Assembly (NCBI GenBank): GCA_016202645.1
Contig: JACQOF010000127.1
Location: 71,714-135,713 of the forward strand
Length of the DNA: 64,000 nucleotides
Direction of reading: 5' to 3'
Source of the DNA: a bacterium
Lineage (GTDB): Bacteria; Lindowbacteria; 2-12-FULL-62-27
Under the pieces are notes generated by a model. That model saw nothing but the letters and a program-made list of their open reading frames with translations. It was not told where the DNA came from and ran no database searches. The position numbers were made by a program, and so were the translations under genes. The stretch's first letter is position 1. Each line of letters starts with the position of its first letter. This document shows positions 35,203 to 64,000 of the stretch, one piece after another.

Positions 35203-35231
35203 GTCTGGATTCCCGCTTTCGCGGGAATGAC
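35203..35231 (-). repeat. REP-type hairpin, single unit
   Basis: gtctggattcccgctttcgcgggaatgac. It contains the ATG 35227 used by the ORF track for the next gene. Confidence 0.85.
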
Positions 35232-36186
35232 GACCCGAGCAGTCATGAAAAATCTTCGTTTGCCTGAAAAGGCCAAGGTCAACCTGATCGGGGGGTTTCT
35301 CGGATCGGGCAAGACCACGCTTCTTCGGCATTTCCTCTCGCGCCCGAAACTTTCCGAAAAAGTCGCGATCCTCGTCAACGAACTCGGCGCCATCGGCATC
35401 GACGGCCAGACCCTTGCCCGCAGCGGCGGGAACATGGTGGAACTTGCCAACGGATGCATCTGCTGTCAGATCTCGGAGGATCTGGTTTCGACCCTCGTCC
35501 AGATATTCGACACGCAAAAGCCGGACCGGATCCTGATCGAGTCAACGGGCGTGGCCGAGCCCGGCAAGATCCTGAACGTGCTCTATTCGGTCGAGCCGAT
35601 CCTCCGGCGGATGCGCGTTGATCCGACCATCATCGTCGTCGACGCGGGGGCATTCGAGCGGTTTAAGACCGCGCTCGCCTATCACTACGTCATGCAGATC
35701 AAATCCGCGGACGTGATTCTTCTGAACAAAATCGATCTCTCCAAGCCCAAGTCTCTCGCGAAGGTGGAGCGGGCGATCCGGGACCTGAACCCAAAGGCAT
35801 TCCTTCTCAGGACGGACCACTGCCGGGTGGACCTTCTGCGGCTCATCGAAGGAATTCCAGCGCAGACGCCGGCGGGAACCCCGGACGATCACGGCCACGA
35901 GCACACGGACGACGAATTTGAAAGTTTCGCCGTCACCGAAGACACCCCCTACGACCGGGGAAAACTGGAGGCCTTTCTGGCGAAGCTTCCGGACAACGTC
36001 TTCCGCGCAAAGGGCTTCGCGAAAACGCCGCAGGGCCGGCATCTGGTGAATTTCACCGCGGGCGAAGTCGAGTTCGAGGATATCCCGGCGAAAGAATTCC
36101 CGAAGCAGGCAGGGCTGGTGTTCATCGGCCGGCATCTCGACGAAAAGAAGTTGCGCGGGGCCTTGAAGAGATGTAAAGCTGGGTAA
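35227..36186 (+). CDS. COG0523-family GTPase metallochaperone (CobW/YjiA/ZigA-like)
   Basis: P-loop GGFLGSGKTTLL, the hallmark CICCQ (CxCC) motif, NKIDL, and a His/Asp-rich linker PDDHGHEHTDDE. ATG 35245 is an alternative start. Confidence 0.85.
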   Translation: MTTRAVMKNLRLPEKAKVNLIGGFLGSGKTTLLRHFLSRPKLSEKVAILVNELGAIGIDGQTLARSGGNMVELANGCICCQISEDLVSTLVQIFDTQKPDRILIESTGVAEPGKILNVLYSVEPILRRMRVDPTIIVVDAGAFERFKTALAYHYVMQIKSADVILLNKIDLSKPKSLAKVERAIRDLNPKAFLLRTDHCRVDLLRLIEGIPAQTPAGTPDDHGHEHTDDEFESFAVTEDTPYDRGKLEAFLAKLPDNVFRAKGFAKTPQGRHLVNFTAGEVEFEDIPAKEFPKQAGLVFIGRHLDEKKLRGALKRCKAG

Positions 36187-38479: not shown

Positions 38480-38487
38480 TCTGCGCC

Positions 38488-38543
38488 GTCATTCCCGCGA
38501 AAGCGGGAATCCAGAACTGGTTCCCCGCTTTCGCGGGGATGAC
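38488..38543. repeat. REP doublet with minimal spacer
   Basis: gtcattcccgcgaaagcgggaatccag-aa-ctggttccccgctttcgcggggatgac. The second hairpin carries a compensatory T:A to C:G change. Confidence 0.9.
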
Positions 38544-38615
38544 GGATGTAACGGGACTTAAGGAACACCACACTGGCACAACTGTATACTTATTTCTTGA
38601 TAGAAAATAAAAAAC

Positions 38616-43316: not shown

Positions 43317-44642
43317 TTGAAGAAATTTTACATTTTCGACACGAACGTGCTCTTGCACGAACCGACCTCCATGTTTGATTTCGAGGACAACACCGTCGTC
43401 CTGCCGATTGTGGTGATCGAGGAACTCGACACATTCAAAAAGCGCGAGGATCAGGTCGGGCGGAATTCCCGCCAGGTTTCGAATGCCCTGGACGATCTGC
43501 GTCTCCAGGGGAGTCTTTCCGAAGGCGTGGACCTTCCGAGCGGCGGGAAACTTGTGATTGAACTCAAGCACCACGAACTGGCGCCCCTGCCGGAAGGCTT
43601 CGCGCAGGATAAAGCCGACAACCGGATCCTGGCCCTGGCGCTCTACTACAAGCAGAAATCCTCCGAGCCTGTGGTGCTGGTATCAAAGGATCTGAACCTC
43701 CGGATCAAGGCCGACGCGCTGGGGATACCGGCTGAGGATTACGAAAAGAACAAGATCGATCCCGAAGTTCTCTACAAGGGACACCGGGAGCTCAAGGTGA
43801 AGTTCGGCTATGTGGACCAGTTCTACAAAAACGGCGAACTGCCCCTGTCGGAATTCCCGGTCGACCCGACCCTTCTGCCGAACGAATTCGTCATGCTCAC
43901 CGATGAGACGAACCCATCGCACACCGGCCTGGCCCGGGTGAAACGCAAGAAGGACATCATTCAGAAGCTGACGTTCGACAATCCCGTGCTCTGGGGCATC
44001 AAACCCAAAAACCGCGAACAGCGGTTCGGACTCGACATCCTCCTCGACGATGACGTCAAGCTCATCAGCCTCGTGGGCATGGCCGGCACCGGAAAAACCC
44101 TGCTCGCGCTCGCCGCCGGCCTCGAAAAAGTCGTCCGCGAAGAGAAATACCAGAAACTTTTTGTCGTAAAGCCGCTCGTGCCGCTCGGCCGCGATATCGG
44201 TTATCTGCCGGGCGAGGTGGAGGAGAAGCTTCTGCCGCGCATGCAGTCGATCCAGGACAATCTCGATTTCCTCTTCTCGAATGTTTCTCACAGTGACATT
44301 GAAGGTTCCGACCTCGAGGACCTCATGGACGCCGGGATCGTCGACATCCAGGCCCTCACCTACATCCGCGGCCGGAGCATTCCGAACGTCTTCATCATCG
44401 TGGACGAGGCGCAGAATCTGACGATGCACGAGGTCAAGACCATCATCACCCGCGCCGGCCAGGGCACCAAACTCATTTTTACCGGAGACCTCGGCCAGAT
44501 CGACAACCCCTACCTCGACGCGACGTCCAACGGGCTTGCTCTCATGGTCGAACGGATGAAAGGCCAGGGCCTTTACGGACACGTGATGTTTTCCAAAGGG
44601 GAGCGCTCGGAACTTGCGGAATTGGCGGCGCAGATTCTATAG
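43317..44642 (+). CDS. PhoH-like ATPase with N-terminal PIN domain (YlaK-like)
   Basis: FYIFDTNVLLHEP (PIN), Walker A GMAGTGKTLLAL and IIVDEAQNLT. TTG start. Confidence 0.85.
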   Translation: MKKFYIFDTNVLLHEPTSMFDFEDNTVVLPIVVIEELDTFKKREDQVGRNSRQVSNALDDLRLQGSLSEGVDLPSGGKLVIELKHHELAPLPEGFAQDKADNRILALALYYKQKSSEPVVLVSKDLNLRIKADALGIPAEDYEKNKIDPEVLYKGHRELKVKFGYVDQFYKNGELPLSEFPVDPTLLPNEFVMLTDETNPSHTGLARVKRKKDIIQKLTFDNPVLWGIKPKNREQRFGLDILLDDDVKLISLVGMAGTGKTLLALAAGLEKVVREEKYQKLFVVKPLVPLGRDIGYLPGEVEEKLLPRMQSIQDNLDFLFSNVSHSDIEGSDLEDLMDAGIVDIQALTYIRGRSIPNVFIIVDEAQNLTMHEVKTIITRAGQGTKLIFTGDLGQIDNPYLDATSNGLALMVERMKGQGLYGHVMFSKGERSELAELAAQIL

Positions 44643-44645
44643 TTA

Positions 44646-44724
44646 TTCGCTATTAGCTATTGGCTATTTGCCATTGGCCAATTCCGGTTGAGCCAACAGC
44701 TAACAGCCAACAGCCAATGGCGAA
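44646..44724. repeat. imperfect 79-bp palindrome built from GC(T/C)ATTN heptamers
   Basis: Left arm ttcgctattagctattggctatttgccattggccaa. Right arm ttgagccaacagctaacagccaacagccaatggcgaa, which is the reverse-complement homologue and contains the helicase ATG 44717. A single arm recurs at 57360-57395. Confidence 0.8.
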
Positions 44725-50476: not shown

Positions 50477-50857
50477 ATGTCACGATTCATATTTCCTCTC
50501 ATCGCCGGCCTGGTCATCGCCGTGATCTTCCAAGCCGGAGCGGCGTTCGGCGCCGGCAACAGGGACCTCGTCAACAAGTACCACGAGACTCTCGAGAAGG
50601 GCTGTCCGCCGGTGGTAGTCAAGCACACGGTGGTGGCCGGCGTTCTCGGATTTCTGCCGGGCGGCGGGATGTACTTTACCGAAAACTACGGCGCCGCCAT
50701 CCGCGACACGCTTCTGTGGCCGCTCTCGGTGCTCTGGGATCCCTTTCTGGCGGTAAGATCCGCCCGGGCTCAGAACATGCAGGCGACGATCCGGGCGTGT
50801 CAGATCAGCGAATCGAGAAAATCAGGGAGAGAGGGAGAAAGGGAGAAAGGGAGATAG
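50477..50857 (+). CDS. small membrane/secreted protein
   Basis: ATG 50477 lies 5 nt after GGAGGTG. MSRFIFPLIAGLVIAVIFQAGAAFG. The C-terminal SGREGEREKGR is encoded by the GA-rich repeat. Confidence 0.55.
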   Translation: MSRFIFPLIAGLVIAVIFQAGAAFGAGNRDLVNKYHETLEKGCPPVVVKHTVVAGVLGFLPGGGMYFTENYGAAIRDTLLWPLSVLWDPFLAVRSARAQNMQATIRACQISESRKSGREGEREKGR

Positions 50858-51041
50858 GCGGGCTTTGGGAAGTGTAACGCCTTTTCAAAGCGCCTGACCG
50901 TCGTCACTATTCAGCCCTCTCCGTCATTCCCGCGCAAGCGGGAATCCAGATGATCGCAGGGCGGACTGGATTCCCGCTTGCGCGGGAATGACGACCTGGT
51001 ACTGACTATCTCCCTTTCTCCCTCTCTCCCTTTCTCCCTCC
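50825..51041. repeat. composite nested inverted-repeat structure: GA-rich arms enclosing a REP doublet (MITE-like)
   Basis: gggagagagggagaaagggagaaagggagata (50825-50856) against tatctccctttctccctctctccctttctccctcc (51007-41), with the REP doublet 50923-50992 between them. Confidence 0.75.
50923..50992. repeat. REP doublet with GCAA/TTGC loops
   Basis: gtcattcccgcgcaagcgggaatccag-atgatcgcagggcgga-ctggattcccgcttgcgcgggaatgac. Confidence 0.9.
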
Positions 51042-51044
51042 CAA

Positions 51045-53057
51045 CTAGGACTTGAGCAGAGTCCGCGCCTCCTCGGCCACCCGCTCGGAGGTAAAGCCGA
51101 ACTGCTTGAGCAGTTCCTTGAGCGGGGCCGACGCGCCGAATTCCCTTCGGCCGATGACAGCGCCGTCGGTGTAGATGCCCACGTAGCGGCGCCATCCCAG
51201 GGTCGACGCCGCTTCCACCGCGACGCGCTTGCGGCACGTGGGCGGCAGGACTTTCTGGCGGTAGGCCTCGGACTGCATCTCGAAAATCTCGTAGGACGGG
51301 AAACTCACCACCCGCGAGCGGACGCCCTCCGATTTGAGTTTTTCGTGGGCCTCGACGCAGAACTGGAGTTCGGATCCCGTCGACATCAAAATCACCTGCG
51401 GCGGGCCGTCCGAATCGGCGAGGATGTAGGCACCCTGGTGGAGGCCTGAAGCCGGCGCGTACTTTGCGCGGTCCAGGGTCGGCAGGGCCTGCCGGCTCAA
51501 AATCAGCGCGACGGGATGATTCTTGTTTTTCATGATCCATCGCCACGCTTCCGCGACTTCGTTGGCGTCGCAGGGTCTCAGCACCACGAGGTGCGGAATT
51601 GCGCGCAGTGAAACGAGGTGCTCGATCGGCTGATGGGTCGGGCCGTCCTCGCCGACGCCGATCGAATCGTGCGTGAAAATGTGCAGGACCGGCAGTTCCA
51701 TCAGGCTGGCGAGGCGCAGGGTCGGGCGGCAATAATCGGAAAAGATCAGGAATCCCGAGCCGTAGGCCCGCAGTTTGGAAATCGTCATCGCGTTCATGAT
51801 CGATCCCATGCCGTGCTCGCGGATGCCGAAATGGAGATTTCGGCCGCCGTAGGAACCTCTCTGAAAATCTCCGCCGTCCGCAATCCGGGTTTTGGTCGAA
51901 GGCGTCAGGTCCGCGGAACCGCCAACCAGCCACGGGACCTGTTTGGCAATCACCGCCTGGACCTTGTTGGAGGAATCCCGGCCCGCGAGGCCTTTGGGGT
52001 CGGCCGGAAAACTCGGAATGTCCTTGTCCCATCCGGCCGGCAATTCTCCCTTCTGCATGTGCTGGAACTCTTCGGCCAGGGCCGGATGCGCCTTCGCGTA
52101 GTCGGCGAACTTCCGGTTCCACTCCTCTTCCGCCTTCATGCCGCGATCGACGGCTTTCCGCATATGCGCCGCCGCCTCGTCCGGCACCAGAAACTTCGCC
52201 TCCGGCGGCCAGCCGTAGCGCTGTTTGGTCAGGCGGATTTCCTCATCGCCCAGGGGCTCGCCGTGCGCGCCCGACGTGTCCTGCTTGTTCGGCGCGCCGT
52301 ACGCGATGTGGCTGTCGACGATGAGAAGCGTCGGCCGTTCGGTTTCTTTCCGGGCCGTATCGAGGGCCCACGTGAGAAGCCCGAGGTCGTTCGCGTCGCC
52401 GACGCGGTGGACGTTCCAGTGATAGGCCATGAACCGGGCCGCGACATCCTCCGAGAACGCCAGCGACGTGTTGCCTTCGATGGTGATGTGGTTGTTGTCG
52501 TAAATCCAGACGAGATTGTTCAGGCCGAGATGCCCGGCCAGGGACGCCGCCTCGGACGAAACGCCCTCCATGAGGCACCCGTCTCCGCAAATGGCGTAGA
52601 CCCGGTAATCGATGATCTCGTGGCCGGGCCGGTTGAAATGGGCGGCGATCCATTTTTGGGCGATCGCAAATCCAACGGCGTTGGCCACGCCCTGTCCGAG
52701 GGGCCCCGTCGTCGTTTCGACGCCGGGGGTGATGCCAAACTCGGGATGCCCCGGACATTTGCTGTTCCACTGCCGGAAATTTTTCAGCTCGTCGAGCGGC
52801 AGGTCGTACCCCGTGAGATGCAGCATGCTGTAAAGAAGCATGGAAGCATGCCCGGCCGAGAGGATGAACCGGTCCCGGTTGGGCCAATTGGGATTTTTTG
52901 GATTGTGCCTTAAGAAGCGGTCCCAGAGCGTGTAGGCGACCGGCGCCAGCGCCATCGGCGTTCCGGGATGCCCGGAGTTGGCCTTCTGCACGGCGTCGAT
53001 CGAAAGCGTCCGAATGGTGTTGATGCAGATATCGTCAATGTTATTTGTCCCGTCCAT
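51045..53057 (-). CDS. tkt: transketolase
   Basis: [26 protein letters not shown], and a C-terminal Pyr/TK_C region. 670 aa. Confidence 0.95.
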
Positions 53058-53109
53058 ATCCGTCCAAACCTCCCCTGATCTGATGAACTACGGTCTACCG
53101 ATCATCTAT

Positions 53110-54468
53110 CTACCACTTGGATGGATCCTCCAGAGAAATCAGCCGCCAGCCGGCGCCCGTGTCGCCTTCCGATTTCCCGCGCTTCACAAACGTCGCGATC
53201 TCCGCGGTCGTGTCGCTTTCCACCCGGCCGTCCGTGTGGACCCGGGTTTCGGAGACGCGGCAGAGCGCGCTGACGGCGTCGAGCGCCAGAAACCGGAACG
53301 CGTCGAACTGCACGTCCGCCGTTATTCGCTCGGTGGCGGCGAACCGGTCCTCGTAAGACTTCTTAAATTCCTTATAACTTAGATTCAGCCATGACGACCG
53401 AAATTTCCGGTCGACGCGCGACATCATTCCCTCCAAGTCCCTGCGGCCCACGGCGGCGATCATTTCCCGCATGGCCGACTCGACTTGCGGGAAGTAGGTT
53501 CTATAGGTGTGGGGAAAGACCACCTTTTCGTATTCCTCGACGCCGGTTCGCAGCGGCGAGGCGCCGGGCGGAATGTCCTGCCGGGTCTGGACGAGGGCCC
53601 AGAGATCCCCAAGCTGGGCGATCCGGTTTTCGTCCACGGGATGGGATCGGAGAAACTCCGGAACAAATGACTGGTCCCGGCGGCCGAATTCCTGAAACAC
53701 CGAGATCACCTGGTCCGCCTGATAGCCGGCCTTGTAGGCATATTTCATCCCGAGCGCGTCGGACCGGAGCTCGTCGCCGCGGCCGAATGACATCATCATC
53801 AGGTTCCGGCCGATGTCGATTCCCAGCGGCATTTCGCGGCCCTTCGTAAAGACCGCCCAGAGCAGATCCGTCGCCATGCCGCCCTGCATGTGCTTCATGG
53901 AATGCCGCTCGACCACGTGGGATATCTCGTGCCCCAAGACACCCGCCAGTTCCGCCTCGTTGTTGAAGATCGTCAGGATCCCCCGCGTGATGTAAATCGT
54001 CCCGCCCGGGAGCGCAAAGGCGTTGATGAGAGGATCGTCGAGCACATAAAAATCGTAGGTGATGTCCTGCCGGTCCGCGAACGACGCCAGAGTCGCCCCG
54101 ATCCGCCGGACGTACGCGAGGAGATCGCTGTCGTCATAGAGTTTATATTGCTTGAGGACTTCCTTCTTCACTTCCTGCCCCAGTTTCTCCTCGTAACTTT
54201 TCGAAAAAAGCACGCCGCCGGTCGACGCCTCGAAGGGGTCCTTCTCGCGCCGGGACTTGCTCCGCTCGACTTTACCCGCGTGGGCGCAACCGGAAAAAAG
54301 AAGCGTGAAGGAGAGGATGAGAATTTGAACCCGGCGACAACGGAGGGAAGCTCTGTTGACTTCCTCCCCCTTGAGGGGGGAGGCAAGGAGGGGGTGAAAT
54401 GCTGTCGGCAGTGACCCCCCTCCCAACCTCCCCCTCAAGGGGGGAGGAGGGAAGACGCTGATATTCAT
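53110..54468 (-). CDS. M48-family zinc metallopeptidase, probable lipoprotein
   Basis: HEISHVVERH (HExxH), INAFALPGGTIYITRG and lipobox LLFSGC. The only canonical start after the purH stop is ATG 54468, which puts about 45 repeat-encoded residues ahead of the lipobox. Confidence 0.8.
   Translation of the reverse strand: MNISVFPPPPLRGRLGGGSLPTAFHPLLASPLKGEEVNRASLRCRRVQILILSFTLLFSGCAHAGKVERSKSRREKDPFEASTGGVLFSKSYEEKLGQEVKKEVLKQYKLYDDSDLLAYVRRIGATLASFADRQDITYDFYVLDDPLINAFALPGGTIYITRGILTIFNNEAELAGVLGHEISHVVERHSMKHMQGGMATDLLWAVFTKGREMPLGIDIGRNLMMMSFGRGDELRSDALGMKYAYKAGYQADQVISVFQEFGRRDQSFVPEFLRSHPVDENRIAQLGDLWALVQTRQDIPPGASPLRTGVEEYEKVVFPHTYRTYFPQVESAMREMIAAVGRRDLEGMMSRVDRKFRSSWLNLSYKEFKKSYEDRFAATERITADVQFDAFRFLALDAVSALCRVSETRVHTDGRVESDTTAEIATFVKRGKSEGDTGAGWRLISLEDPSKW
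54361..54450. repeat. 90-bp composite palindrome of the G/C-tract element family (two inverted halves)
   Basis: cctcccccttgaggggggagg (54363-83) and cctccccctcaaggggggagg (54428-48), flanking ggagggggtgaaatgctgtcggcagtgacccccctcc. Confidence 0.85.
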
Positions 54469-54470
54469 CG

Positions 54471-56000
54471 CTAGTGCCGGAAATGCCGGCGGCCGCTGAA
54501 GAAGAGGGCCAGGTTGTGTTTCCGGGCCGCCGCGACGACATCTCCGTCGCGCACCGACCCGCCCGGCTCGACGATCGATGTGATGCCGGATTTGGCCAGA
54601 AGTTCCACCGAATCGTGGAACGGAAAAAATCCGTCGGAGGCGCAGGCGGCGCCCTGCAGACTGTGACCGTAGCGCCGGGCCTTGTCCAGCGCGATTTTCA
54701 CGGAGTCCACGCGGCTCTGCTGGCCGGACCCGATGCCGATGGCCTGGGCGCCGCGCACAAGAACGATCGCGTTGGACTTGACGTGCTTGGCAAGGCGCAT
54801 CGCCAGGTCCAGGTCCTGCTTCGCGCTCCGGGATTTGGCGGAACCCGCCATCCGTTTCCACCGGGCCTGGGGAAGCACGCCCGCGTCCGCGCTCTGCACC
54901 AGGATGCCGCCGAGGACCGACCGGATCTGCAGACGACGGCCGGGATGGGGCATGTCGGCGGGACGGATTTCGAGGAGGCGGAGATTTTTTTTGGCGCCGA
55001 GGATTTTTCGAGATTTCGGGTCGTATCCGGGGGCGACGATCACTTCAAAAAACCGTTCGGCCATCTCCCGCGCCGCGCGCGCGTCCACGCGGCGGTTGAA
55101 GACCACGACGCCGCCGAATGCGCTTTGCGGGTCGCCGTTGAAGGCCCGCCGGAAAGCTTCGCCCGCGTGCCGCCCGACGCTCGCGCCGCAGGGGTTGGTG
55201 TGTTTGAGGATCGCGCAGAACGGCCGGCGCGGCGCGTCCGCCCAGAGCGAAACGGCCGCGTCGATGTCGAGGAGATTGCAGTACGAGAGAGGTTTGCCTT
55301 GGAGGACCTTGAAGGGCAGGCCGGCCGAGGTGATGGGAAGAAAAAACGAAGCGATCTGATGGGGATTTTCTCCGTATCGGAGCGACAGAGCCTCTTCCGC
55401 CGCTTCGAAATATAATTTTGGCTGCTGCCCGTCCAGCCGGGCCAGGCCGGCGCCCAGAATTTTCAGATCGTACTGCGCCACCGCTCCCCACGCAATGGCC
55501 GCCAGGCGGCGCCGGTAGTCCGGGGCGTCCGAGTCGTTCTGAAGAAAACGGTTCGCGAATTCCCCGTACTGGGACGGCGACACCAGGGTCGCCACTTGCT
55601 CGAAATTCTTCGCGGCCGCCCGGACCAGCGCGACGCCGCCGATGTCGATTTTGTCGGAGAGGTCTTTGTTCCCGGATTTGGGCGCGTCCGGGAAATCGTA
55701 GAAATTGCAAACCAGAAGATCAAACCGCGGAAACCGAAACCGGGCCAGGGTCCGGTCGTCCGAGGACCGCGCCAGAAGACCGGAGAAGACGGCCGGATGA
55801 AGCGTCTTCACGCGGCCGTTGAGAATTTCAGGAAATTTCGTCAGCGCTTCCACCCGCCGGACTTTCACGCGGTGGCCCGACAAAAGACGCGCGGTCCCGC
55901 CGGTCGCGTAGAGCCGGACGCCGTTCTGGGCAAGCATCTTGGCCAGGGGCACGAGGCCCCGGCGGTCGGAAACGGTCAGGAGCGCCGTTCGAATCGGCAT
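54471..56000 (-). CDS. purH: bifunctional AICAR transformylase/IMP cyclohydrolase
   Basis: N-terminal MGS-like ALLTVSDRRGLV...LYATGGTA, KTLHP, and a C-terminal ...GGSVRD...HFRH terminus. Confidence 0.95.
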   Translation of the reverse strand: MPIRTALLTVSDRRGLVPLAKMLAQNGVRLYATGGTARLLSGHRVKVRRVEALTKFPEILNGRVKTLHPAVFSGLLARSSDDRTLARFRFPRFDLLVCNFYDFPDAPKSGNKDLSDKIDIGGVALVRAAAKNFEQVATLVSPSQYGEFANRFLQNDSDAPDYRRRLAAIAWGAVAQYDLKILGAGLARLDGQQPKLYFEAAEEALSLRYGENPHQIASFFLPITSAGLPFKVLQGKPLSYCNLLDIDAAVSLWADAPRRPFCAILKHTNPCGASVGRHAGEAFRRAFNGDPQSAFGGVVVFNRRVDARAAREMAERFFEVIVAPGYDPKSRKILGAKKNLRLLEIRPADMPHPGRRLQIRSVLGGILVQSADAGVLPQARWKRMAGSAKSRSAKQDLDLAMRLAKHVKSNAIVLVRGAQAIGIGSGQQSRVDSVKIALDKARRYGHSLQGAACASDGFFPFHDSVELLAKSGITSIVEPGGSVRDGDVVAAARKHNLALFFSGRRHFRH

Positions 56001-56033
56001 GGGAGAAAAGTTAGCACGCCGCGCCGCAATTTT

Positions 56034-57317
56034 CTACTTGCCGGGCGGGGCGAAGTGGATCGTCGCCTCCAGCCGCCACCGGTCGTTTTCCTCGTAGGAG
56101 GACGCGTTCGTGCCGCCGCCGTCCCCGGAGAGGGCATCGAAGCCGGCGCGGAGTTCCAAAAGATCGGTCGCTTTCCAGGCAAGCTCCGTTGAGACAAGAA
56201 AAGCGTCGGGTCCCCGGGAGGTGTAGACGCCCGCAATCCGCAGGGACGTGAATTCGCTGAGATCGATCCGGGCATCTGCAAGAACCGACCCGGGCGCGGG
56301 GCGCTGGACGAGGGTCTGAAGAATCGTCCCGGGAGAACGCCTCGTGGAGTAGACGTGTTCGCCCGACCATTCCAGCGTCAGGTCCAGATCCCAGGTCTTG
56401 TAGAAATCCGTGTAGGACCGGCGGCCGCCAGCCACCGCCAAAAGGTAATCATCATCGTAACCGGATGGCGTCGACGTATACGCCGCTTCGACGTGAACCT
56501 CCCATCGCCCTTCGTCCACCAGACGCGCCGCATCAAGCCCGACCGTCCGCTTGTTCAGAAAAAGCGGCGTGACGAAAAGTCCTCCCGCGCGGGCGCCGCC
56601 CGCGACGTCATCCACCACGCGGGCGTAACTGGCGGAGACATCCCAGCCGGACAGGGGCAACGCGAGGCGAAGCCCGTACCCCGCATTCGCCGCGGTATTG
56701 GCCGGGAAGCGCACATCGAGCGGGACCGGAACCGTACCGTCCAGCAATGTCCGCCAGCGGGTGTTGACCCGGCCGGCCCGGCTGGGGCTGTAGACGGGAA
56801 GAAAAACAAATTCGACGGAGGAAACTCCGGCGCGTTTCGGATACCAGTACCCGCGGAAGCCAACCTGTCCGAGTCTTTGGGGATCGAGCAGATCCGCATA
56901 ATCGAAGGCGCCGAAGACATCCGTGGGATTGAGACCAACGGCATTGCCCCACGAAATCTTCTGTTTGCCGATCCGAAGGTCCACCTGTTTTCCGTAGACG
57001 TCGAGGTAGGCCTCCGCCACATTCACATTCGGCCGGCGCGCCATGCGGTCGTGGACCTGACTCAAAATCCCGGCGGAAAGACTGCGCTGGTCGCCGACCA
57101 CCTCCGGGGCAACAAACATTTCGACCCCACGCGCCATCTCCCGGCGCCCTTCAAACGCAAGCCGCCCCTCCATGAGCGCGTTTCCATCGGCGGCGGGATC
57201 CGCGTGGAGATAGGAGACAAAGCGACTTTCAAAAAATTTCGCCCGGACCCATGCGGCGGCGGGCGGCGGCCCGAATCCGGCTATCACGAGGACACACACG
57301 AACCATCGGAATCTCAT
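56034..57317 (-). CDS. putative outer-membrane beta-barrel protein
   Basis: ATG 57317 gives MRFRWFVCVLVIAGFGPPPAAA. The long alternating strand pattern is porin-like (...KISWGNAVGLNPTDVF...). The track N-extension MANSYQLMANGE is repeat-encoded. Confidence 0.55.
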   Translation of the reverse strand: MRFRWFVCVLVIAGFGPPPAAAWVRAKFFESRFVSYLHADPAADGNALMEGRLAFEGRREMARGVEMFVAPEVVGDQRSLSAGILSQVHDRMARRPNVNVAEAYLDVYGKQVDLRIGKQKISWGNAVGLNPTDVFGAFDYADLLDPQRLGQVGFRGYWYPKRAGVSSVEFVFLPVYSPSRAGRVNTRWRTLLDGTVPVPLDVRFPANTAANAGYGLRLALPLSGWDVSASYARVVDDVAGGARAGGLFVTPLFLNKRTVGLDAARLVDEGRWEVHVEAAYTSTPSGYDDDYLLAVAGGRRSYTDFYKTWDLDLTLEWSGEHVYSTRRSPGTILQTLVQRPAPGSVLADARIDLSEFTSLRIAGVYTSRGPDAFLVSTELAWKATDLLELRAGFDALSGDGGGTNASSYEENDRWRLEATIHFAPPGK

Positions 57318-57359
57318 CCGCTCCTGTGTAATTCTGCCGGTTTTGGGTGTCAATCTAAG

Positions 57360-57395
57360 TTCGCCATTCGCCATTAGCTGATAGCTATTGGCCAA
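57360..57395. repeat. single arm of the GC(T/C)ATTN heptamer element
   Basis: ttcgccattcgccattagctgatagctattggccaa, homologous to 44646-44681. Confidence 0.75.
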
Positions 57396-57421
57396 GAGCA
57401 GATTTATGGTAATATTGGGGC

Positions 57422-57865
57422 ATGAAGGACTATAAATCAGTTTTTAAGGAACTTGAAAATAACCTGATGTCCCTCAAGTGGTGGACCGAGAGCTGGACCA
57501 TCTACAACCGCGGCGTCTACATGCAGGTCGCGAAAGAAAACTGGTTCAACGACAACCAGGGCGGGATCCACTTCGAGACCTACGTCGAAAAAAACGAACT
57601 CGCCGAAAAACTCGTCCCGATCCACATGCACGTCGAGGACGAATTCCCCAAACAGGACGAATTCGTCCGGCTCTTCACCGAACGCGCGCGGCCCCAGATC
57701 GAAAAATGGAAAGGCTACAAAGTCTACGGCACCGGATACCTCATCTGCCAGCGCAAACTCCCGCTGGACCCCAAATCCCTTTCAAGCCGCCTCATCGAGG
57801 AATACTCCCGCCTCCGGGACCTCGAACCCCTCATCGACAAAACCATTGAGGATATTCTGAGCTAG
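57422..57865 (+). CDS. hypothetical cytoplasmic protein
   Basis: 147 aa with good coding composition. No family recognised. Confidence 0.55.
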   Translation: MKDYKSVFKELENNLMSLKWWTESWTIYNRGVYMQVAKENWFNDNQGGIHFETYVEKNELAEKLVPIHMHVEDEFPKQDEFVRLFTERARPQIEKWKGYKVYGTGYLICQRKLPLDPKSLSSRLIEEYSRLRDLEPLIDKTIEDILS

Positions 57866-57893
57866 GTGCAAAAGGACAAAAGCAAAAGGCAAA

Positions 57894-58950
57894 AGGGGTC
57901 ATTCCCTTAGTTTGTTAGTTTTGGAGGAATGTGATATGAGGAGACCATATGCCACGCGGTCCGAGGATTAGTTATCCACATGCGGTTTTTCATGTGATCA
58001 ATCGGTTTGTCGATCGTCATCCTTTTTTCACGGACAACGAGGACTATCGGCAATTCCTGGACGTTTATTTTGAAAACGCCGCAACCTTTGGTATCTGGAC
58101 GTATGCCTACGATCTTCTCCCAAATCATTTCCATTTTGTTATGGAGACGCCCTCGGGGGAGATTTCCAGATTTCTCCAGCGGTTTCTGACAAGTGCCGTC
58201 CAGAAGCTGAATCAAAGGCACAAACGCGTCGGACACCTGCTGCAGGGACGAACCAAGACCCTCCTGGTCCAGACGGATCGCTACTTCCACACAGTGATGG
58301 GTTATGCGTTGCTGAACGGCGTCCGGGCCGGATTGGCCAAGGACGTTTTCTCGGACACGCACAACAGCGTGAAGGAAATGCTGAATCCGCTGCGCAGCCG
58401 CCTGGCGCGAGGGCCCCTATGGGAGTATTTGTTCGGGCGCAAATTCGACTTGCGCCGAGTCCACTCGGAGATCCGTATGTGCCGCCGCTGGCTGAGCGAA
58501 TTGAATGTCGAGGGAAACGCCAAAGAATTTCGTCAGGGGCATCGTGGGTCGTTTTTATCTACTGCAGTTTATAGAGAAAAAGTCCTGCGCATGATTGAGC
58601 GAAGGAGGGATGAGACTGGACACAAGCATCGCAGAGAGACCGATAGACACAGGAAATCGTGGACTTGGCCGGAAATCAAAATTGCCGCGGACCGCGCCGT
58701 CGAAAAGAGCGCTTGGAAAGGGATCTGGAAAAATCGCGAAACAGCTGTTCGCCATATCCGCTGGTACATATCCATCGTGGGAGCGGGATGGACCTACGAG
58801 GAGACCTGCGAGCTCGAAGGGGCACACGGCAGGTCACATTCTCGACGGGCCGTTGCCATTCATGCCATCCGCAATACACCCAGGAAGAAAAACATTGCCG
58901 ACAGGGCAATCAGCCTCTGTCTAAACTAACAAACTAAGGGAATGACCCCT
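57894..58950 (+). mobile_element. RAYT-type element: Y1/HUH transposase gene bounded by perfect 28-bp inverted repeats
   Basis: aggggtcattcccttagtttgttagttt at 57894-57921 is the exact reverse complement of 58923-58950 (aaactaacaaactaagggaatgacccct). Confidence 0.8.
57949..58929 (+). CDS. REP-associated tyrosine transposase (IS200-like HUH/Y1, COG1943) with C-terminal HTH-like extension
   Basis: AVFHVINRFVDRHPFF, HUH motif LPNHFHFVMET, GHLLQGR, and catalytic-Tyr helix RYFHTVMGYALLNGVRAGL. The extra ~170 aa end in WTYEETCELEGAHGRSHSRRAVAIHAIRN, resembling a DnaA-C/Trp-repressor-type HTH. Confidence 0.8.
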   Translation: MPRGPRISYPHAVFHVINRFVDRHPFFTDNEDYRQFLDVYFENAATFGIWTYAYDLLPNHFHFVMETPSGEISRFLQRFLTSAVQKLNQRHKRVGHLLQGRTKTLLVQTDRYFHTVMGYALLNGVRAGLAKDVFSDTHNSVKEMLNPLRSRLARGPLWEYLFGRKFDLRRVHSEIRMCRRWLSELNVEGNAKEFRQGHRGSFLSTAVYREKVLRMIERRRDETGHKHRRETDRHRKSWTWPEIKIAADRAVEKSAWKGIWKNRETAVRHIRWYISIVGAGWTYEETCELEGAHGRSHSRRAVAIHAIRNTPRKKNIADRAISLCLN

Positions 58951-60087
58951 ACCCCACCTAAACCAATACTGACTGGGCTGGATCGGATTGAGGCAGGGGG
59001 GGCCCTAGATATCAGAGGGATGCGGGTTGGGCTTCTGGCGCATCCGGCCTCGGTGAGTTTGCGGCTTCGGCATGCAGCGGAAATTTTGCGGGAGGCGGCC
59101 GGGGTTCGGCTCACGGCGCTGTTTGCGCCCCAGCATGGGTGGTTTGGGGAGGCGCAGGACAATATGATTGAGGGGCGGTGTCCGCCGGAGGTGTTCAGTC
59201 TCTACGGGCGGCGGCGCGAGCCGACGGCGGCGATGCTGGCCGGAATCGATGCGATGGTGGTGGATCTTCAGGACGTGGGGACCCGCGTGTACACGTTTAT
59301 TCAAACGCTGTATCTGGTGATGCGCGCCTGCGCGAAATATCACAAGAAAGTAGTCGTTCTGGACCGCCCGAATCCCATCGGCGGATCCGTTGAGGGGCCG
59401 ACATTGGATCCGGCATACGCGTCGTTTGTGGGTCTCACGCCGCTTCCGCTTCGGCACGGCATGACGGTCGGAGAAATCGCGCGGTGGTATCGAAAAAAAC
59501 TAAAGACGGATTTGACCGTGATCGGAATGCGAGGCTGGCGCAAGACCATGTACTTCGAAGAAACGCGTCTGCCCTGGGCGATGCCGTCGCCGAACATGCC
59601 CGCCGTTGAAACCGCCGTGGTATATCCCGGGACGGTCCTGCTTGAAGGGACATCCGTGTCCGAGGGCCGCGGCACGACGCGTCCCTTCGAGATCATCGGG
59701 GCGCCGAATATCCATCCTGAAAAATTCGCCCGCGAACTTGAATCATACCGGCTTTCCGGCGTCCGGTTCCGGCCGCTGACGTTTCAGCCCACCTTCAACA
59801 AGCATGCCGGGAAAATTTGCGGCGGAGCGCAGATCCATGTCACCGACCGCCGGTCTTTCCGGGCGACCCTGACGGGCGCGGCGGTCCTCAAGGCCTTTCG
59901 GCGATTGGACCGGGGATTCAGATGGAAATCCCCGCCCTACGAATATGAAACCCGGAAATATCCGATTGATATTCTGGCCGGCACGTCGAGACTACGCCGG
60001 ATGATCGACCGGGACGCGCCGGTCAGCGCGTTTCGGGAGTGGTTTCTGGAGGACGCGCGGGCGTTCCGGCGATCGATCCGCGCCTGA
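58942..60087 (+). CDS. DUF1343-family protein (exo-beta-N-acetylmuramidase NamZ-like)
   Basis: TGLDRI...RVGLLAHPASV...DAMVVDLQDVGTRVYTFIQTL...VVVLDRPNPIGG...GLTPLPLRHGMTVGE. Its ATG lies inside the right inverted repeat of the RAYT element. Confidence 0.8.
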   Translation: MTPTPPKPILTGLDRIEAGGALDIRGMRVGLLAHPASVSLRLRHAAEILREAAGVRLTALFAPQHGWFGEAQDNMIEGRCPPEVFSLYGRRREPTAAMLAGIDAMVVDLQDVGTRVYTFIQTLYLVMRACAKYHKKVVVLDRPNPIGGSVEGPTLDPAYASFVGLTPLPLRHGMTVGEIARWYRKKLKTDLTVIGMRGWRKTMYFEETRLPWAMPSPNMPAVETAVVYPGTVLLEGTSVSEGRGTTRPFEIIGAPNIHPEKFARELESYRLSGVRFRPLTFQPTFNKHAGKICGGAQIHVTDRRSFRATLTGAAVLKAFRRLDRGFRWKSPPYEYETRKYPIDILAGTSRLRRMIDRDAPVSAFREWFLEDARAFRRSIRA

Positions 60088-60913
60088 GTGTGCGGGGCGT
60101 GAAGAGATCAGCGGCGAGCGGCGTGACAAGATCCCGGCGCGCCACCGTGAGATCGGTGCGGTGCCGCCGCTGAAAATTCCGAACATGGATGCGGTTGGCC
60201 CGCCAGTTTGATCCATGGCGTTCAACCTCCGCCGCCTTCAGAATTTTGATCAATTTTCCCGACCGGTCAAAATACTCGGTCATCAAGATCACGTCCCTGT
60301 CCGCGTCGACATAGACGCGCCGCAGGCCGTATCCCGACCGGCGCCGGGCCGATTCGTCCCGGGCGACCGCATCGATGACCCGGGCCGGCCGCTCGTCGAT
60401 TTCCGTGTCCGGCGCCGCGAACCGATAGACGTAGAGGTCAATGTCCTCGACGGAAAAATCCTCAAAGGTCAAATCCGTCCCGAGGAAATAGTCCGTCCGG
60501 CCGGAATCGGCGATCCGCCGGATTTTGCCGACCGCCGGCAGGTACAGCCACTGGTCATCCCAGCCGTCCGGGCGCTGTTTCGAAAGCAGGGCCGAGCCGC
60601 GAATATCCGGCGGGGCGTCAAAGAACACGAGGGTGGATTCGAGGCCATCCGGCTCGCGCCGCCGGAATTCCCGGACTTGCCGGCGCCGTTCAAACCCGGT
60701 ACGGTCCGTGAGGGTCATGTCGATCTCAATGATTTCGGACGGCGCGCGTTGGTTCAATTCGACCCGCCGCATCACGTCGCGGGCGGAAAGGGTGTCGGAA
60801 GCCAACCCCGGCAAGACCGAGAGAGGCCCCCCCCTCCCGGCCTCCCCCTCAAGGGGGGAGGATGGATTCAGCAATCCGGCGGCGACGACGAGGCTAAAGA
60901 CCCAGGGCCGCAT
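60023..60913 (-). CDS. LolA-like outer-membrane lipoprotein-sorting domain protein
   Basis: ATG 60913 gives the signal peptide MRPWVFSLVVAAGLL. QWLYLPAVGKIRRI...DYFLGTDLTFEDF is the LolA_like pattern. SSPLEGEAGRGGP after the signal peptide is repeat-encoded. Confidence 0.7.
   Translation of the reverse strand: MRPWVFSLVVAAGLLNPSSPLEGEAGRGGPLSVLPGLASDTLSARDVMRRVELNQRAPSEIIEIDMTLTDRTGFERRRQVREFRRREPDGLESTLVFFDAPPDIRGSALLSKQRPDGWDDQWLYLPAVGKIRRIADSGRTDYFLGTDLTFEDFSVEDIDLYVYRFAAPDTEIDERPARVIDAVARDESARRRSGYGLRRVYVDADRDVILMTEYFDRSGKLIKILKAAEVERHGSNWRANRIHVRNFQRRHRTDLTVARRDLVTPLAADLFTPRTLRRGSIAGTPARPPETTPETR
60823..60862. repeat. G/C-tract palindromic element, half unit, inside a CDS
   Basis: gaggcccccccctcccggcctccccctcaaggggggagga, homologous to 54409-54448. 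Confidence 0.8.
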
Positions 60914-61577
60914 GAAGTTTGCGGGCATCCAGCAGGTGTTCGCCTGAGAATATCCTTGAATTATCGTATCCAAGATCGTCGATGACCATCAGGCCCGGCG
61001 AGTCCGGGCTCCTACCGACCTCGAGTTTCAGGTCGCAGAGTCTGAGATTTTTTTCCGTGTAAAACGCTGTCAGGACGCCCGTCACGCGATCCAGAAAATC
61101 GAGGGCACGAACCAGTTCCTCTTTCTGAATCAAGCCGCGATCCACCGCCTCCTTCTCGGACAGAGGCGGGTCGTCGGACGCGTCGTCCTTCAGGGTGAGT
61201 TCGCGCGTTCCGGGTATTTCCGCGAGGGAGCGAACGCCCGGATGGGTTCGAAGGTAATGCCCGTAAGCGAAGTTCCTTGAAATAAATTCGATCCGGATCG
61301 GTTCTGTCCGGCGGACCATGATCGAGTCCTCGGACAGCCGCTCCACAAAATGCGTCGTCACCCCCGCCTCGGCAAGGCGCTCGAAAATCCGGCAGGCGAT
61401 GGCGCAGGCAAGCGCGCCTTTTCCCGCCTCCTGGCCGACGACCTCGTTTCCGCCGCTGTCCGGCACGCCCGCCCTGCCGAGAACATTATCCTTGAAGCGG
61501 AACCCGATATACCGGGACTGAGGCAGACGAAGGACGTCTTTTGTTTTACCGACATAGAGCACCCGGCCGTCCGACAT
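60894..61577 (-). CDS. purC: phosphoribosylaminoimidazole-succinocarboxamide (SAICAR) synthase
   Basis: LYVGKTKDV...IEFISRNFAYG...LCDLKLEVG...DDLGYDNSRIF, the short PurC type. Confidence 0.85.
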   Translation of the reverse strand: MSDGRVLYVGKTKDVLRLPQSRYIGFRFKDNVLGRAGVPDSGGNEVVGQEAGKGALACAIACRIFERLAEAGVTTHFVERLSEDSIMVRRTEPIRIEFISRNFAYGHYLRTHPGVRSLAEIPGTRELTLKDDASDDPPLSEKEAVDRGLIQKEELVRALDFLDRVTGVLTAFYTEKNLRLCDLKLEVGRSPDSPGLMVIDDLGYDNSRIFSGEHLLDARKLHAALGL

Positions 61578-61588
61578 GCGGTCCTCCG

Positions 61589-62488
61589 TCAGGGCGCGGC
61601 GGGTTTCTTGTTGTTGATCTTGCTCAGGAATCGCTCGGCCTCGGCCCGAAACCGGCCGTTCGGATATCGGATCATGTACTGGCTGATCTCGTCCCCGGCG
61701 GGGCCGTGGCTGTTTTGCGCCATCAGCACCGAAATGCGCCCGAACATGGCCAGTTCGGAAAACTCGCTTGCCGGAAAATCTTGTATGACGCTCTTGTACT
61801 GATCGAGCGCCGCCACAGTGTCGGACAAGGCCAGGGAACAGACCGCCATCCGGTAGAACGCGGCGGGCCGATTTTCGCCGGCCGGAAAGGTCTTGATCAA
61901 TTTTTCGTAGGCATCCCGCGCCTGCTCGTATTTCTTGTCTTCCTGATAGATTTCCCCCATGTCAAAGTGTGCCTTTTCCGACACGCGGTCCTTGCCAAAC
62001 TTCAAAATGATCCCGCGGTACCGTACCAGAGCCTCGATCTTGTTCCCGAGTTCCGAGAGGCTCTCGGCAATCTCGTAGGAGGCATTCTTGACGAACTCGC
62101 TCTTGGGATACCGCTTCACGAGGTCCTCGTAAGCCGCGACGGCCTTGCCGGCGTCCTTGAGATTGTATTTGTAGATGTTCGCGATTTCGTAAAGGCTGTC
62201 CGCCGCGTACTTGGCGTTGGGATTCCGCCGGACGATCTCCCGGAACCACTCGATGGCCCGTTCGTACTTGCCAAGCGATACCTGGTTGGAAGCCACGTTG
62301 AATCTCAGTTCAAGGTCAACTTCCTCCAAGTGGGCCGTCAGGGTTTCCATCTGTTTTTCCAGTTCCCTCAGCCGTTCCGCGCTCGATGCGTCGCCCTTCG
62401 CGCGCCACTTGCGGACCGCCTGGCAACCGGGCAGGAGCATCATCAAAATCAACGCGAGCGCGAGAGCGCGGATGGCGCGGGGTTTCAT
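61589..62488 (-). CDS. TPR-repeat lipoprotein (YbgF/CpoB- or BamD-like)
   Basis: Lipobox LLPGC, an N-terminal coiled coil (LRELEKQMETLTAHLEEVD), then TPRs with a YP.S..A pattern. Confidence 0.65.
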   Translation of the reverse strand: MKPRAIRALALALILMMLLPGCQAVRKWRAKGDASSAERLRELEKQMETLTAHLEEVDLELRFNVASNQVSLGKYERAIEWFREIVRRNPNAKYAADSLYEIANIYKYNLKDAGKAVAAYEDLVKRYPKSEFVKNASYEIAESLSELGNKIEALVRYRGIILKFGKDRVSEKAHFDMGEIYQEDKKYEQARDAYEKLIKTFPAGENRPAAFYRMAVCSLALSDTVAALDQYKSVIQDFPASEFSELAMFGRISVLMAQNSHGPAGDEISQYMIRYPNGRFRAEAERFLSKINNKKPAAP

Positions 62489-64000
62489 GGGGTCACCCCG
62501 GGACCCAAGGTCACGAAATCGATCATCTGCGCGTAGTGGGGTTCGTCCATTCCCGGGACGTTTTTCAGGTCCATGAGAGATTTGAACGGCCCGATGTTCT
62601 GGCGGAACCAGAGAATGTTGTGCGCGAGGCGTTCGTCCATTCCGGGTACGATCAAGAGGGCGTTCAAGTCCGCCACGTTGATGTTGGTGTGGCCGGCCTC
62701 CCGCGACAGGATTGTACCGCCGCCCTCCCGGATCGCCCGGACTTCGGCCCGGAGCAAGTCCCGCTCGATGACCAGCTGACGGATCTGCTGCTGCAGGGTA
62801 AGAACGGCGCGGTCAGCCGCGTCGATCCGCTGATCGGTTGAAGCCGGTTCCGGCGAGAAGGCCGGGATGCCGCGTTCGCGGCGCAAGGCGTCGAGTTCCC
62901 CGCGCATGTCGGCGAGATTTTTCCGAAGTTCCGCGAGGCGGAGGGATTCCGGTTCCTCGCCGCCCCGTGACTCGGCGGCAGTCGGATCCTTCTTCGGAGA
63001 TTTTTGGGCGATCTTATTTGCCCCGGCCGGTTTTTCATCCGCGGCCGCGGGCAGTCTGGGTAGATCCTGATCCAGTTTTTCCATCCGGCTTTCGAGATAC
63101 GCAAGTTTTTTCTTCAGTTCACTATTTTCTTTCTGGATGCGCGACACGTCTTCCTTGACCTCGGCCGTTTGGTTTGCGATCGCCGGCGGCCGCGGCCGGG
63201 CCGGGGCATTTTCCGGTTTCGGATCCGGCTTGGATTCGGGAATCCGCGGCGCCGTGGAACCTTCAAGGGACAATCGCGAAAGAAAGGACCGCGCAATCTG
63301 GTCCGACGGCTCGGATTCGAGGACTTTCGTGAAGGCCTTCTGCGCTTCGGCCTTGTTGCCCGCGACGTAGTGGGTCATGCCGAGGTTGTTCCAAGCCAGC
63401 GCGTTTTTAGGGTCAATCGCGAGGACCTGTTCGAGAGCCGCCAAGGCAGTGGGGATGCGATTGAGTTCGCGAAGGACGACCGCATAGTTGATGAGATATT
63501 CCGGATCGGGCCGGATCCGCACGGCCTCTTCGAGCTGGGCCAGGGCCCTGGGATAGTCCCGGGTCCGGATATAGAGGAGCGCGAGATTATATCGAGCGTC
63601 CGAAAAAGAAGGGTCGAGCTCGACCGCCCGGAGGTATGCGTTTTCCGCGAGATCCATTTTTCCCATGCGGCTTTCGATGAGACCGAGATTATACCGGTGC
63701 TGGGCCACCGAAGGCTGTCGAAGAGAGAGATCCATGAACATCCGTTCCGCCTCGTCGTAGCGGTTCATCGAGACATAGGCCTCCGCCAGGGCCTGTCGGA
63801 CCCGCGCATCCGCGCCGCCGTACCCGACGAGCACCGCGAGGGCGGACTCCGTTTTTCCCTGGGCATACAACACCTCCGACAACTCGAGGACGATGTCAGC
63901 GCTGTTCGGATCGAACCGGATCGCTTCCCGGAGTTCTCCTTCGGCGGCGGGATAGTCGCCCCGCGCCGACGCGGCGGCCGCGCGGGCGCGGTGCTCTTCA
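62485..64000 (-). CDS. TPR / coiled-coil protein with C-terminal ComEA-type helix-hairpin-helix domain; N-terminus beyond the window
   Basis: The frame stays open upstream of TTG 63882 to base 64000 (EEHRARAAAASARGDYPAAEGELREAIRFDPNSADIVLEL). The C-terminus INVADLNALLIVPGMDERLAHNILWFRQNIGPFKSLMDLKNVPGM is an HhH pair. Confidence 0.7.
   Translation of the reverse strand, partial: EEHRARAAAASARGDYPAAEGELREAIRFDPNSADIVLELSEVLYAQGKTESALAVLVGYGGADARVRQALAEAYVSMNRYDEAERMFMDLSLRQPSVAQHRYNLGLIESRMGKMDLAENAYLRAVELDPSFSDARYNLALLYIRTRDYPRALAQLEEAVRIRPDPEYLINYAVVLRELNRIPTALAALEQVLAIDPKNALAWNNLGMTHYVAGNKAEAQKAFTKVLESEPSDQIARSFLSRLSLEGSTAPRIPESKPDPKPENAPARPRPPAIANQTAEVKEDVSRIQKENSELKKKLAYLESRMEKLDQDLPRLPAAADEKPAGANKIAQKSPKKDPTAAESRGGEEPESLRLAELRKNLADMRGELDALRRERGIPAFSPEPASTDQRIDAADRAVLTLQQQIRQLVIERDLLRAEVRAIREGGGTILSREAGHTNINVADLNALLIVPGMDERLAHNILWFRQNIGPFKSLMDLKNVPGMDEPHYAQMIDFVTLGPGVTP

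Follow-up and report, generated by a model that had tools for sequence, protein, structure and literature searches.

Genes resembling those of the REP-associated tyrosine transposases (RAYTs; REP, repetitive extragenic palindrome) but accompanied by long inverted repeats were named TIRYTs in 2013, and the units containing them TIRtrons (Di Nocera, De Gregorio and Rocco; PMC3733652). According to the accessible part of that paper, many TIRtron repeats carry the consensus GGGGWSAS, and some of them form small dispersed families. Most TIRYTs were later placed in subclass 2.1 of TnpA_Y1, which occurs in about 15% of the strains surveyed and comprises long proteins with a C-terminus like Bac_DnaA_C or another helix-turn-helix (HTH), without REPs nearby (Quentin, Siguier, Chandler and Fichant, 2018; PMC6006769). 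Since the GGGG motif is unlike a DnaA box, those authors doubted a role of this domain in target recognition. In a full-text search the names TIRYT and TIRtron appeared only in these two papers, neither of which proposes a mechanism. Here we analyzed, by computation throughout, a 64,000-nt stretch of bacterial DNA (the window; positions 71,714 to 135,713 of contig JACQOF010000127.1, assembly GCA_016202645.1, Lindowbacteria), and we describe an element at positions 57894-58950 that is a divergent newcomer to this known, barely studied class. We consider it rather probable that the element is a TIRtron in the full sense, a discrete, ~1.06-kb unit that comprises one TIRYT gene and, as the target of its own product, two bipartite terminal inverted repeats.

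Like the described TIRtrons, the locus has a RAYT-like Y1 gene with long terminal inverted repeats in place of REPs; the repeats start with a GGGG-type word (here GGGGTCAT), overlap or abut the ends of the gene, and occur in extra single copies. It differs in that its tip is a clade-specific 10-mer with the eighth base off the consensus: GGGGTCAT matches GGGGWSAS at 7/8 positions, the last being T and not S, while GGGGACAC of one relative (L014) matches fully. The tandem 7-mers, the promoter position and the outer arrays described below are not mentioned in the accessible text of PMC3733652. With subclass 2.1 the protein shares a length among the greatest of the Y1 proteins, a C-terminal HTH extension (Bac_DnaA_C, HTH_23 or HTH_28-like in the subclass) and the absence of a REP within ~1 kb, which is a likeness by features and not by tree; its C-terminal domain, in contrast, has no Pfam match and is seen by predicted fold only. 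Moreover, the comparison with DnaA boxes in PMC6006769 was limited to the GGGG tip, and the 7-mers are a candidate site that was not considered there.

The RAYT/REPtron of E. coli (TnpA_REP, 4ER8) offers the closest structure for the catalytic domain, and it has in common the HUH and tyrosine motifs, a small number of copies and an inverted repeat on either side of the gene. A RAYT, however, is flanked by hairpins with a GT[AG]G tag, of which there are hundreds of copies, whereas the arms of the element contain neither GTAG nor GTGG, are not REP-type hairpins, and were not seen as a multi-copy family. The preliminary description of the locus, made from the sequence, had called the element a RAYT; it is not a REP-flanked RAYT, its flanks being those of a TIRYT, the nearest REP unit (50966-50993) is 6.9 kb away, and a REP scan found none from 50993 to 64000. 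The IS200/IS605 transposases (IS608, ISDra2) share the HUH/Y1 fold and presumably the chemistry on single-stranded DNA (ssDNA), but they have no terminal inverted repeats, carry subterminal hairpins on one strand, use a TnpA of ~130-150 aa without a DNA-binding extension and usually exist in several identical copies, as opposed to the perfect terminal inverted repeats and the 326-aa protein with an added, putatively DNA-binding domain found here.

The element and the design of its repeats

The two arms of the inverted repeat are located at 57894-57921 on the plus strand and, as the same 28 nt, at 58923-58950 on the minus strand; they lie 1001 nt apart and are 100% complementary. No other copy of the arm with up to three mismatches was found elsewhere in the 64-kb window or in 100 shuffles, and the element itself is single-copy in the window. 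The left arm consists of the tip GGGGTCATTC (57895-57904), a linker CC (57905-57906), a first 7-mer TTAGTTT (57907-57913), a spacer G (57914) and a second TTAGTTT (57915-57921), all on the plus strand and in a layout that is the same in relatives. Only one open reading frame (ORF) lies inside the arms, the TIRYT gene of 326 aa (57949-58929, plus strand), and its stop codon TAA (58927-58929) falls within the right arm. The perfect repeat and the single enclosed HUH/Y1 gene had both been recognized in the preliminary description and were borne out here. So were the phased heptamers to the left of the element, which the description had placed to within one base: TRF reported an array of GCAAAAG/CAAAAGG at 57868-57896 (plus strand, period 7, 4.1 copies) that runs into the GGGG of the left tip.

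For comparison we used the DNA of relatives, that is, the loci around homologues from genomes, metagenomes and assemblies (named L001-L042), ~18 of which were compared. Nearly all had a 25-37-nt inverted repeat of common design framing the gene, namely GGGGTCATTC (sometimes GGTGTCATTC), two pyrimidine-rich linker bases, and two tandem 7-mers one base apart. This design was present in the window and in L001, L002/L011, L005, L009, L010, L013, L014, L015, L016, L018, L019, L022, L027, L028, L040, L041 and L042. The 7-mers vary between elements and yet agree on both arms of each: TTAGTTT in the window element and its closest relative L040, CTACTTT in L005 and L041, GACACTT in L009, AAACATT in L010, CCACTTT in L016, CTACATT in L019, L027 and L028, and GCACAAA in L015. 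The arms of one element were either the same or different at 1-3 positions, with the mismatch at the 7-mer spacer in four loci (L001, L010, L016, L019) and scattered elsewhere. In these relatives the left arm ended 19-28 nt 5' of the ATG, and the right arm overlapped the stop codon or came soon after it. More distant TIRYT genes were also framed by repeats with GGGG-type tips. No flanking repeats were found around the clade genes of L017 and L031; downstream of the former, at 6974-7094 of L017, there is an imperfect tip-plus-repeat pair (32 nt, 75% complementary, 57-nt spacer).

Short tandem arrays adjoin many of the tips in other loci as well, and the 32 nt outside the tips were more periodic than random windows (Mann-Whitney p=0.0012). 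In L019 a duplication takes in GGGGTCA. There was no sign that the outer arrays are hypervariable, the Lindowbacteria loci from different samples being identical except for one tip base.

The protein and a proposed mode of action

The 326-aa product matched Pfam Y1_Tnp (E=5e-6) and scored 45.7 bits with NCBIfam REP_Tyr_transpos, short of the equivalog threshold (cut-off 80); NCBI annotates a product of 311 aa that starts at a later GTG. H60 and H62 of the HUH motif and Y119 were invariant when 24 full-length homologues (39-71% identity) were aligned. The protein comprises a HUH/Y1 catalytic domain (~aa 1-135), a helical middle part and a C-terminal domain (aa 236-326; nt 58654-58926). An AlphaFold2 model of the whole protein had a mean confidence (pLDDT) of 85.9, and its best Foldseek match in the PDB was 4er8_A, the E. 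coli RAYT with a REP hairpin (E=8.8e-6, TM 0.72 on the target), followed by the IS608 and ISDra2 transposases.

The C-terminal extension with an HTH-type end, noted in the preliminary description, proved to be real. When aa 236-326 were modelled separately (pLDDT 93.8), the top five PDB matches were all DnaA domain IV (3pvp, 1j1v, 8btg; probability 0.84-0.98, TM 0.58-0.66), after which TM fell sharply to ~0.3 with unrelated folds. The C-terminal domain is predicted from these models to fold like DnaA domain IV. More distant homologues with a common N-terminal domain carry PF08299 or PF13384. A ferritin match, the only one from a profile search of PDB sequences with the C-terminal domain, was rejected as spurious. 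Between members of the clade 72% of the C-terminal positions differ, compared with 36% in the N-terminal domain, and this fast divergence beside a conserved N-terminus matches the variable 7-mers beside a conserved tip. The protein of a Rhodospirillum rubrum plasmid (L038) has 235 aa and no detectable HTH, and its repeat comprises no more than the 19 nt of TTAAAAGGGGTCAGACCCC, which are partly self-complementary; as a single case, this fits with the inner part of the repeat going with the C-terminal domain.

A predicted sigma-70-type promoter (57912-57940, plus strand, consensus scan) lies partly within the left arm. Its -35 hexamer TTGTTA (57912-57917) spans the junction of the 7-mers and is followed, after a 17-nt spacer, by the -10 hexamer TATGAG (57935-57940), which ends 8 nt 5' of the ATG. 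The same pattern recurs in the clade, with a -35-like TTGxxA at the 7-mer junction and a -10-like hexamer 16-18 nt downstream, ending 5-8 nt before the ATG. In 11/13 elements the best -35/-10 pair stood at the same offset from the tip, and 54% of the elements, against 6.8% of shuffles, had a promoter score of 9/12 or more.

On the basis of this arrangement we propose the following model. The HUH domain would nick and rejoin ssDNA through Y119, at or beside the conserved tip. The DnaA-IV-like domain would bind the two 7-mers as duplex DNA and so place the catalytic domain on the tip. Because the -35 hexamer straddles the two 7-mers of the left arm, protein bound there would also repress the TIRYT gene, whose message would be nearly leaderless. 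The Rep proteins of geminiviruses and of rolling-circle plasmid origins, and that of adeno-associated virus with the binding element of its inverted terminal repeat, bind iterons beside their nick site. By analogy the element design resembles such systems: a HUH nuclease would be combined with sequence-specific recognition of short tandem repeats that adjoin a conserved site of cleavage, the specificity varying while the nick site stays constant. The element differs from them in that it offers no evidence of replication, in that the presumed binding domain is DnaA-IV-like and not the HUH domain itself, and in that the sites are inverted around one gene.

Several observations weigh against this model. 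The DnaA-IV assignment is by fold only, with Foldseek E values of 0.13-0.7; Pfam found Y1_Tnp alone in all 24 members and no match for the C-terminal domain, and a comparison by hhalign with relatives that carry DnaA_C did align the HTH as expected, but with E=0.1. The distance between 7-mers and that between recognition helices were uncorrelated (Mantel r=0.07, p=0.34, n=14; a partial Mantel test likewise gave no signal). The linker bases shift jointly on both arms (CC in the window and CG in L040; TT in L005 and TG in L041), a concerted change that is not explained by 7-mer binding alone. The promoter is a consensus match only, the window element scores 8/12, and a stricter scan of that element gave no promoter. 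Finally, inverted repeats put the tip sequence on opposite strands at the two ends, which does not fit the same-strand peel-and-paste of IS608. Groupings made by eye, SRYTM with xxCAC and SRxSVA with CTACxTT, may be mere shared ancestry.

Mobility, domestication and the CGTC-1 REPs

We propose that the element has been mobile over evolutionary time, with very few copies. Two related elements, L002 and L011, show 81.7% identity over 1052 nt that run precisely from one tip to the other, and their flanks are unrelated; between the two the repeats are fully (100%) identical while the coding sequence has diverged, so that the repeats must be under much stronger constraint. The window segments 54473-56982 and 59029-62829 are collinear with a locus of Candidatus Lindowbacteria (L020) in which the flanking genes are 28 nt apart and the upstream gene product is 58% identical to its counterpart in the window. 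This syntenic site has neither the element nor a 147-aa ORF that precedes it in the window, and the Lindowbacteria genome keeps its own clade member at another site. The empty site that the preliminary description had suggested looking for in related strains was thus obtained in part: the element is missing, but since the 147-aa ORF is missing too, the site is not a precise one and the insertion boundaries are unreadable. In addition, two divergent members whose 7-mers differ are present together in some genomes.

Solo arms were found just 3' of the stop codons of unrelated genes in L009 (~9000-9034) and L013 (~2079-2110). The window has one of its own at 2471-2497 (plus strand), a repeat of another specificity reading GGTGTCATTC TT CTACATT G CTACATT; (ATACGGTG)x3.4 stands before it at 2438-2464, and this arm also lies just 3' of a stop codon, that of msrA (2502-3029, minus strand). 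Neither a partner arm nor a gene belonging to it was found in the window. The left arm of L027, an element from another metagenome, is 100% identical to 2471-2499, which implies that this genome has, or once had, a second TIRYT with another specificity.

A different view, which we consider unlikely, is that the TIRYT gene is a domesticated and immobile host gene, that the repeats have been kept as operators or transcription boundaries for autoregulation, and that the protein serves host ssDNA at replication forks. Such a role would agree with the single copy, with divergent, orthologue-like relatives that each lie on one contig, and with a promoter at a conserved offset within the left repeat; RAYTs are generally viewed as domesticated in the accessible part of PMC5581495. 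Nearly every homologue cluster was indeed on a single contig, and the Lindowbacteria element did not vary, in sequence or in site, among the loci retrieved from different samples. Both points speak against current activity, and they leave present-day activity unproven and domestication possible. Neither a transposition event nor a circle junction or a target duplication was seen. Each tip in the window can also fold into a hairpin of 5-6 bp with a T-rich run after it, as in a terminator. This hairpin is not kept where the linker is TT, and the tips as terminators (AAGGGG-TCAT-TCCCTT hairpin and T-run) were for this reason rejected as a general function. A domesticated gene accounts poorly for related elements in unrelated contexts whose homology ends exactly at the tips, for the absence from the syntenic site in L020, for genomes with two divergent copies, and for solo repeats elsewhere, one of which in the window is identical to the repeat of a foreign element; moreover, an operator needs no second perfect copy past the stop codon.

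The window also contains 10 REP units, which served as a comparison set and are not presented as parts of the element. They are arranged in four head-to-head doublets (10396-10468, 18646-18718, 38487-38544 and 50922-50993) and two single units (1574-1601 and 35205-35232), and all of them fit the CGTC-1 family exactly, with a CGTC tag, an 8-bp stem from AT, a 4-nt loop and a CCA tail; the accessible text of PMC3733652 assigns Neisseria dRS3 and Rickettsia RPE-6 to this family. In the preliminary description the outer 9 nt of the element's repeats were equated with the outer ends of the doublets, the doublets were taken for non-autonomous miniatures of the element, and its protein for their cognate enzyme. 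GTCATTCCC does occur 10 times in the window against 0.9 expected, and it is carried by 7/10 REP units, two others having GTCATGCCC and one GTCATCCCC. The identity therefore held for these seven units, and it failed at one of the two outer ends of the doublets at 18647 and 38488, whose second unit is a variant. A further match to GTCATTCCC at 33835 is outside any REP hairpin and looks like chance.

Beyond the window this identity was not kept. The closest relative L040 (71% identity) has GTCATTCCG with linker CG and L001 has GTCATTCTT with linker TT, and the match to the REP word falls from 9 to 8 and 7 nt, respectively, whereas GGGGTCATTC was kept across the protein clade with or without REPs nearby. 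The REPs share GTCATTC(CC) alone with the tip; they are 28-nt hairpins without GGGG and without the 7-mers, and the base before GTC is always C in them and G (GGGGTC) in the arms of the element. L001 was the only other locus with a REP, 800 nt from its clade gene. No CGTC REP was found in >100 kb around the other clade members, including ~20 kb of the Lindowbacteria genome and L040-L042, where ~17 would be expected at the density of the window (1/6.4 kb). In a plasmid collection, on the other hand, the REP unit (~29-34 nt) was 94-100% identical in Azospirillum plasmids, Sphingopyxis and Neisseria gonorrhoeae, with at least 40 copies in each of two N. gonorrhoeae records of 2.17 Mb, which are chromosome-sized though listed as plasmids. 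The Azospirillum and Neisseria records gave no tblastn match to the protein (E<=1e-8), eight records in all being matched.

We infer that the CGTC-1 doublets are a separate, phylum-spanning repeat family that has only a short word in common with the tip. In these limited samples the REPs and the protein clade were not co-distributed, and the cognate-enzyme inference is unsupported. REPs without a protein of this type and a tip identity that is not maintained are, in spirit, what the preliminary description had itself named as speaking against the link. That the element is an autonomous master and the doublets its miniatures, the doublet hairpin showing a GTCATTCCC/GGGAATGAC foot like paired arms so that the HUH domain processes both, is in our judgment quite improbable. 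What this idea can draw upon is that GTCATTCCC faces outward in both arms and in 7/10 REP units, that the clade-wide tip still has GTCATTC in common with the REPs, that the TGTC variant of the REP tag (described in the accessible part of PMC3733652) occurs in the tips of L005, L013, L015 and the window copy at 2471, that the clade member L001 has the same REP close by, and that CGTC REPs have no known transposase according to the same text. Apart from the missing GGGG and 7-mers and from the REPs of Neisseria and Azospirillum, it has to contend with the lack of any arm-like copy with up to three mismatches elsewhere in the window, with the replacement of the CC that extends the match to the ninth nucleotide by CG in the closest relative and by TT in L001, and with the fact that the dispersed extra copies that were found (window 2471-2497, L009, L013) bear the tip together with the 7-mers.

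GTCATTC at the outer end of both structures has, by our own rough estimate, a chance of ~1e-2 to 1e-4, and a common HUH recognition word is therefore possible. One may speculate, with little confidence, that TIRYTs with GGGGTCAT tips read (C/G/T)GTCAT at the foot of a duplex, that they or HUH relatives are the long-missing enzymes of the CGTC REPs, that the doublet mimics paired TIRtron ends, that the bipartite repeat, as a HUH site with two 7-mers read by the DnaA-IV-like domain and used also as the -35 of the gene, is an origin-like module, and that the outer arrays are scars of nicking and priming.

Several features of the REPs were noted in their own right. An identity of 94-100% across phyla, here between the 29-nt unit of an uncultured lineage and those of distant bacteria, is unusual conservation for a REP. 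The doublets at 10396-10468 and 18646-18718 are the same heterodimer (a ATGCCCGC unit and a ATTCCCGC unit), oppositely oriented and similar in their 17-nt spacer. A 5' extension TCAGCCCnnnCC before GTC is common to three units, and some units exceed the length of the hairpin. The doublet at 50922-50993 is bracketed by inverted octamer arrays, (AGGGAGAA)x4.4 at 50824-50858 and (TCTCCCTT)x3.9 at 51009-51040, which form a 34-nt, 94% inverted repeat; the same octamer array also occurs alone at 9394-9427. This arrangement recalls the tandem arrays outside TIRtron tips.

Finally, it is very unlikely that the arms act by pairing with each other, as an ssDNA panhandle on the lagging-strand template or between the 5' and 3' ends of the transcript, instead of being sites read by a protein: the (nearly) perfect complementarity of the arms in nearly all elements despite their different sequences, the joint changes of the linker, and the work of HUH/Y1 enzymes on folded ssDNA (4er8 and IS608 structures) would suit such pairing, but L002/L011 keep 28/28 repeat bases against an 18% coding difference, which is purifying selection on sequence without compensatory pairs, tandem 7-mers would be pointless in a plain stem, solo arms persist without a partner, and pairing in RNA is ruled out if the predicted promoter is right, as the left arm then lies upstream of the transcript start.

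The namZ junction and other features of the locus

The neighboring host gene is namZ (exo-beta-N-acetylmuramidase; 58942-60087, plus strand), identified by Pfam NamZ_N and NamZ_C; the closest homologue of its product belongs to Candidatus Lindowbacteria, with 76% identity. The right arm of the element holds the ATG of namZ and two more codons, this ATG (58942) being the ATG of GGGAATGAC and in frame with the transposase gene. The preliminary description had pointed out both the transposase stop and the namZ start in the right repeat, correctly so. The stop codon lies 12 nt upstream of the ATG in the same frame, and the sole Shine-Dalgarno-like bases, GGGA, directly abut the ATG, so that namZ is probably expressed through read-through and translational coupling. 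When 58923-58990 was compared with 3972-4030 of L020, the Lindowbacteria orthologue was seen to start with MGKVRTGLDR at a start codon of its own; only 28 nt separate it from the divergent gene upstream, and no element intervenes. Judging from this comparison of sequences, the right end of the element appears to have replaced the native start of namZ.

The 147-aa ORF (57422-57865) lies between the conserved upstream gene and the element, and neither Pfam nor NCBIfam gave a match for it; it may have come in together with the element or on its own. At the locus of P0123, a relative without the element, a toxin-antitoxin module adjoins namZ, and in L038 (the R. rubrum plasmid) and L039 (a Skermanella plasmid) such modules directly adjoin distant TIRYT genes. 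Near the beginning of the window there is a tip-like GGTGACAC at 1396-1430, preceded by (GGTCGATAC)x2.3, which has GATACGGTG in common with the array at 2438-2470. Between the two are the single CGTC-1 REP at 1574-1601 and a two-gene module (1672-2308), the second gene of which is Pfam dnstrm_HI1420, an addiction-module antidote, while the first has no Pfam match. This may be a cassette with a tip-like site at either end, the two sites being in direct orientation. Facing tandem-heptamer arrays also occur at 44640-44717 (left TAGCTAT/TTGGCTA, right AGCCAAC), inverted and ~20 nt apart, with no element inside. An Rfam scan of the window gave a single match, a tRNA at 20403-20487.

In summary, this clade displays the TIRtron repeats unusually clearly, with a constant tip and catalytic domain, variable 7-mers and a variable, DnaA-IV-like domain, and a predicted promoter built into the left arm. 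Taken together, these three features suggest a concrete model of a Rep protein plus iterons, and they would answer the objection raised in PMC6006769 that the GGGG motif is unlike a DnaA box. The shared GTCATTC is weak evidence, but it provides a specific question for work in vitro, namely which enzyme, if any, moves the CGTC REPs. For the host, the local lesson of namZ is that the insertion of such an element can take over the start codon of a neighboring gene, and probably its expression.

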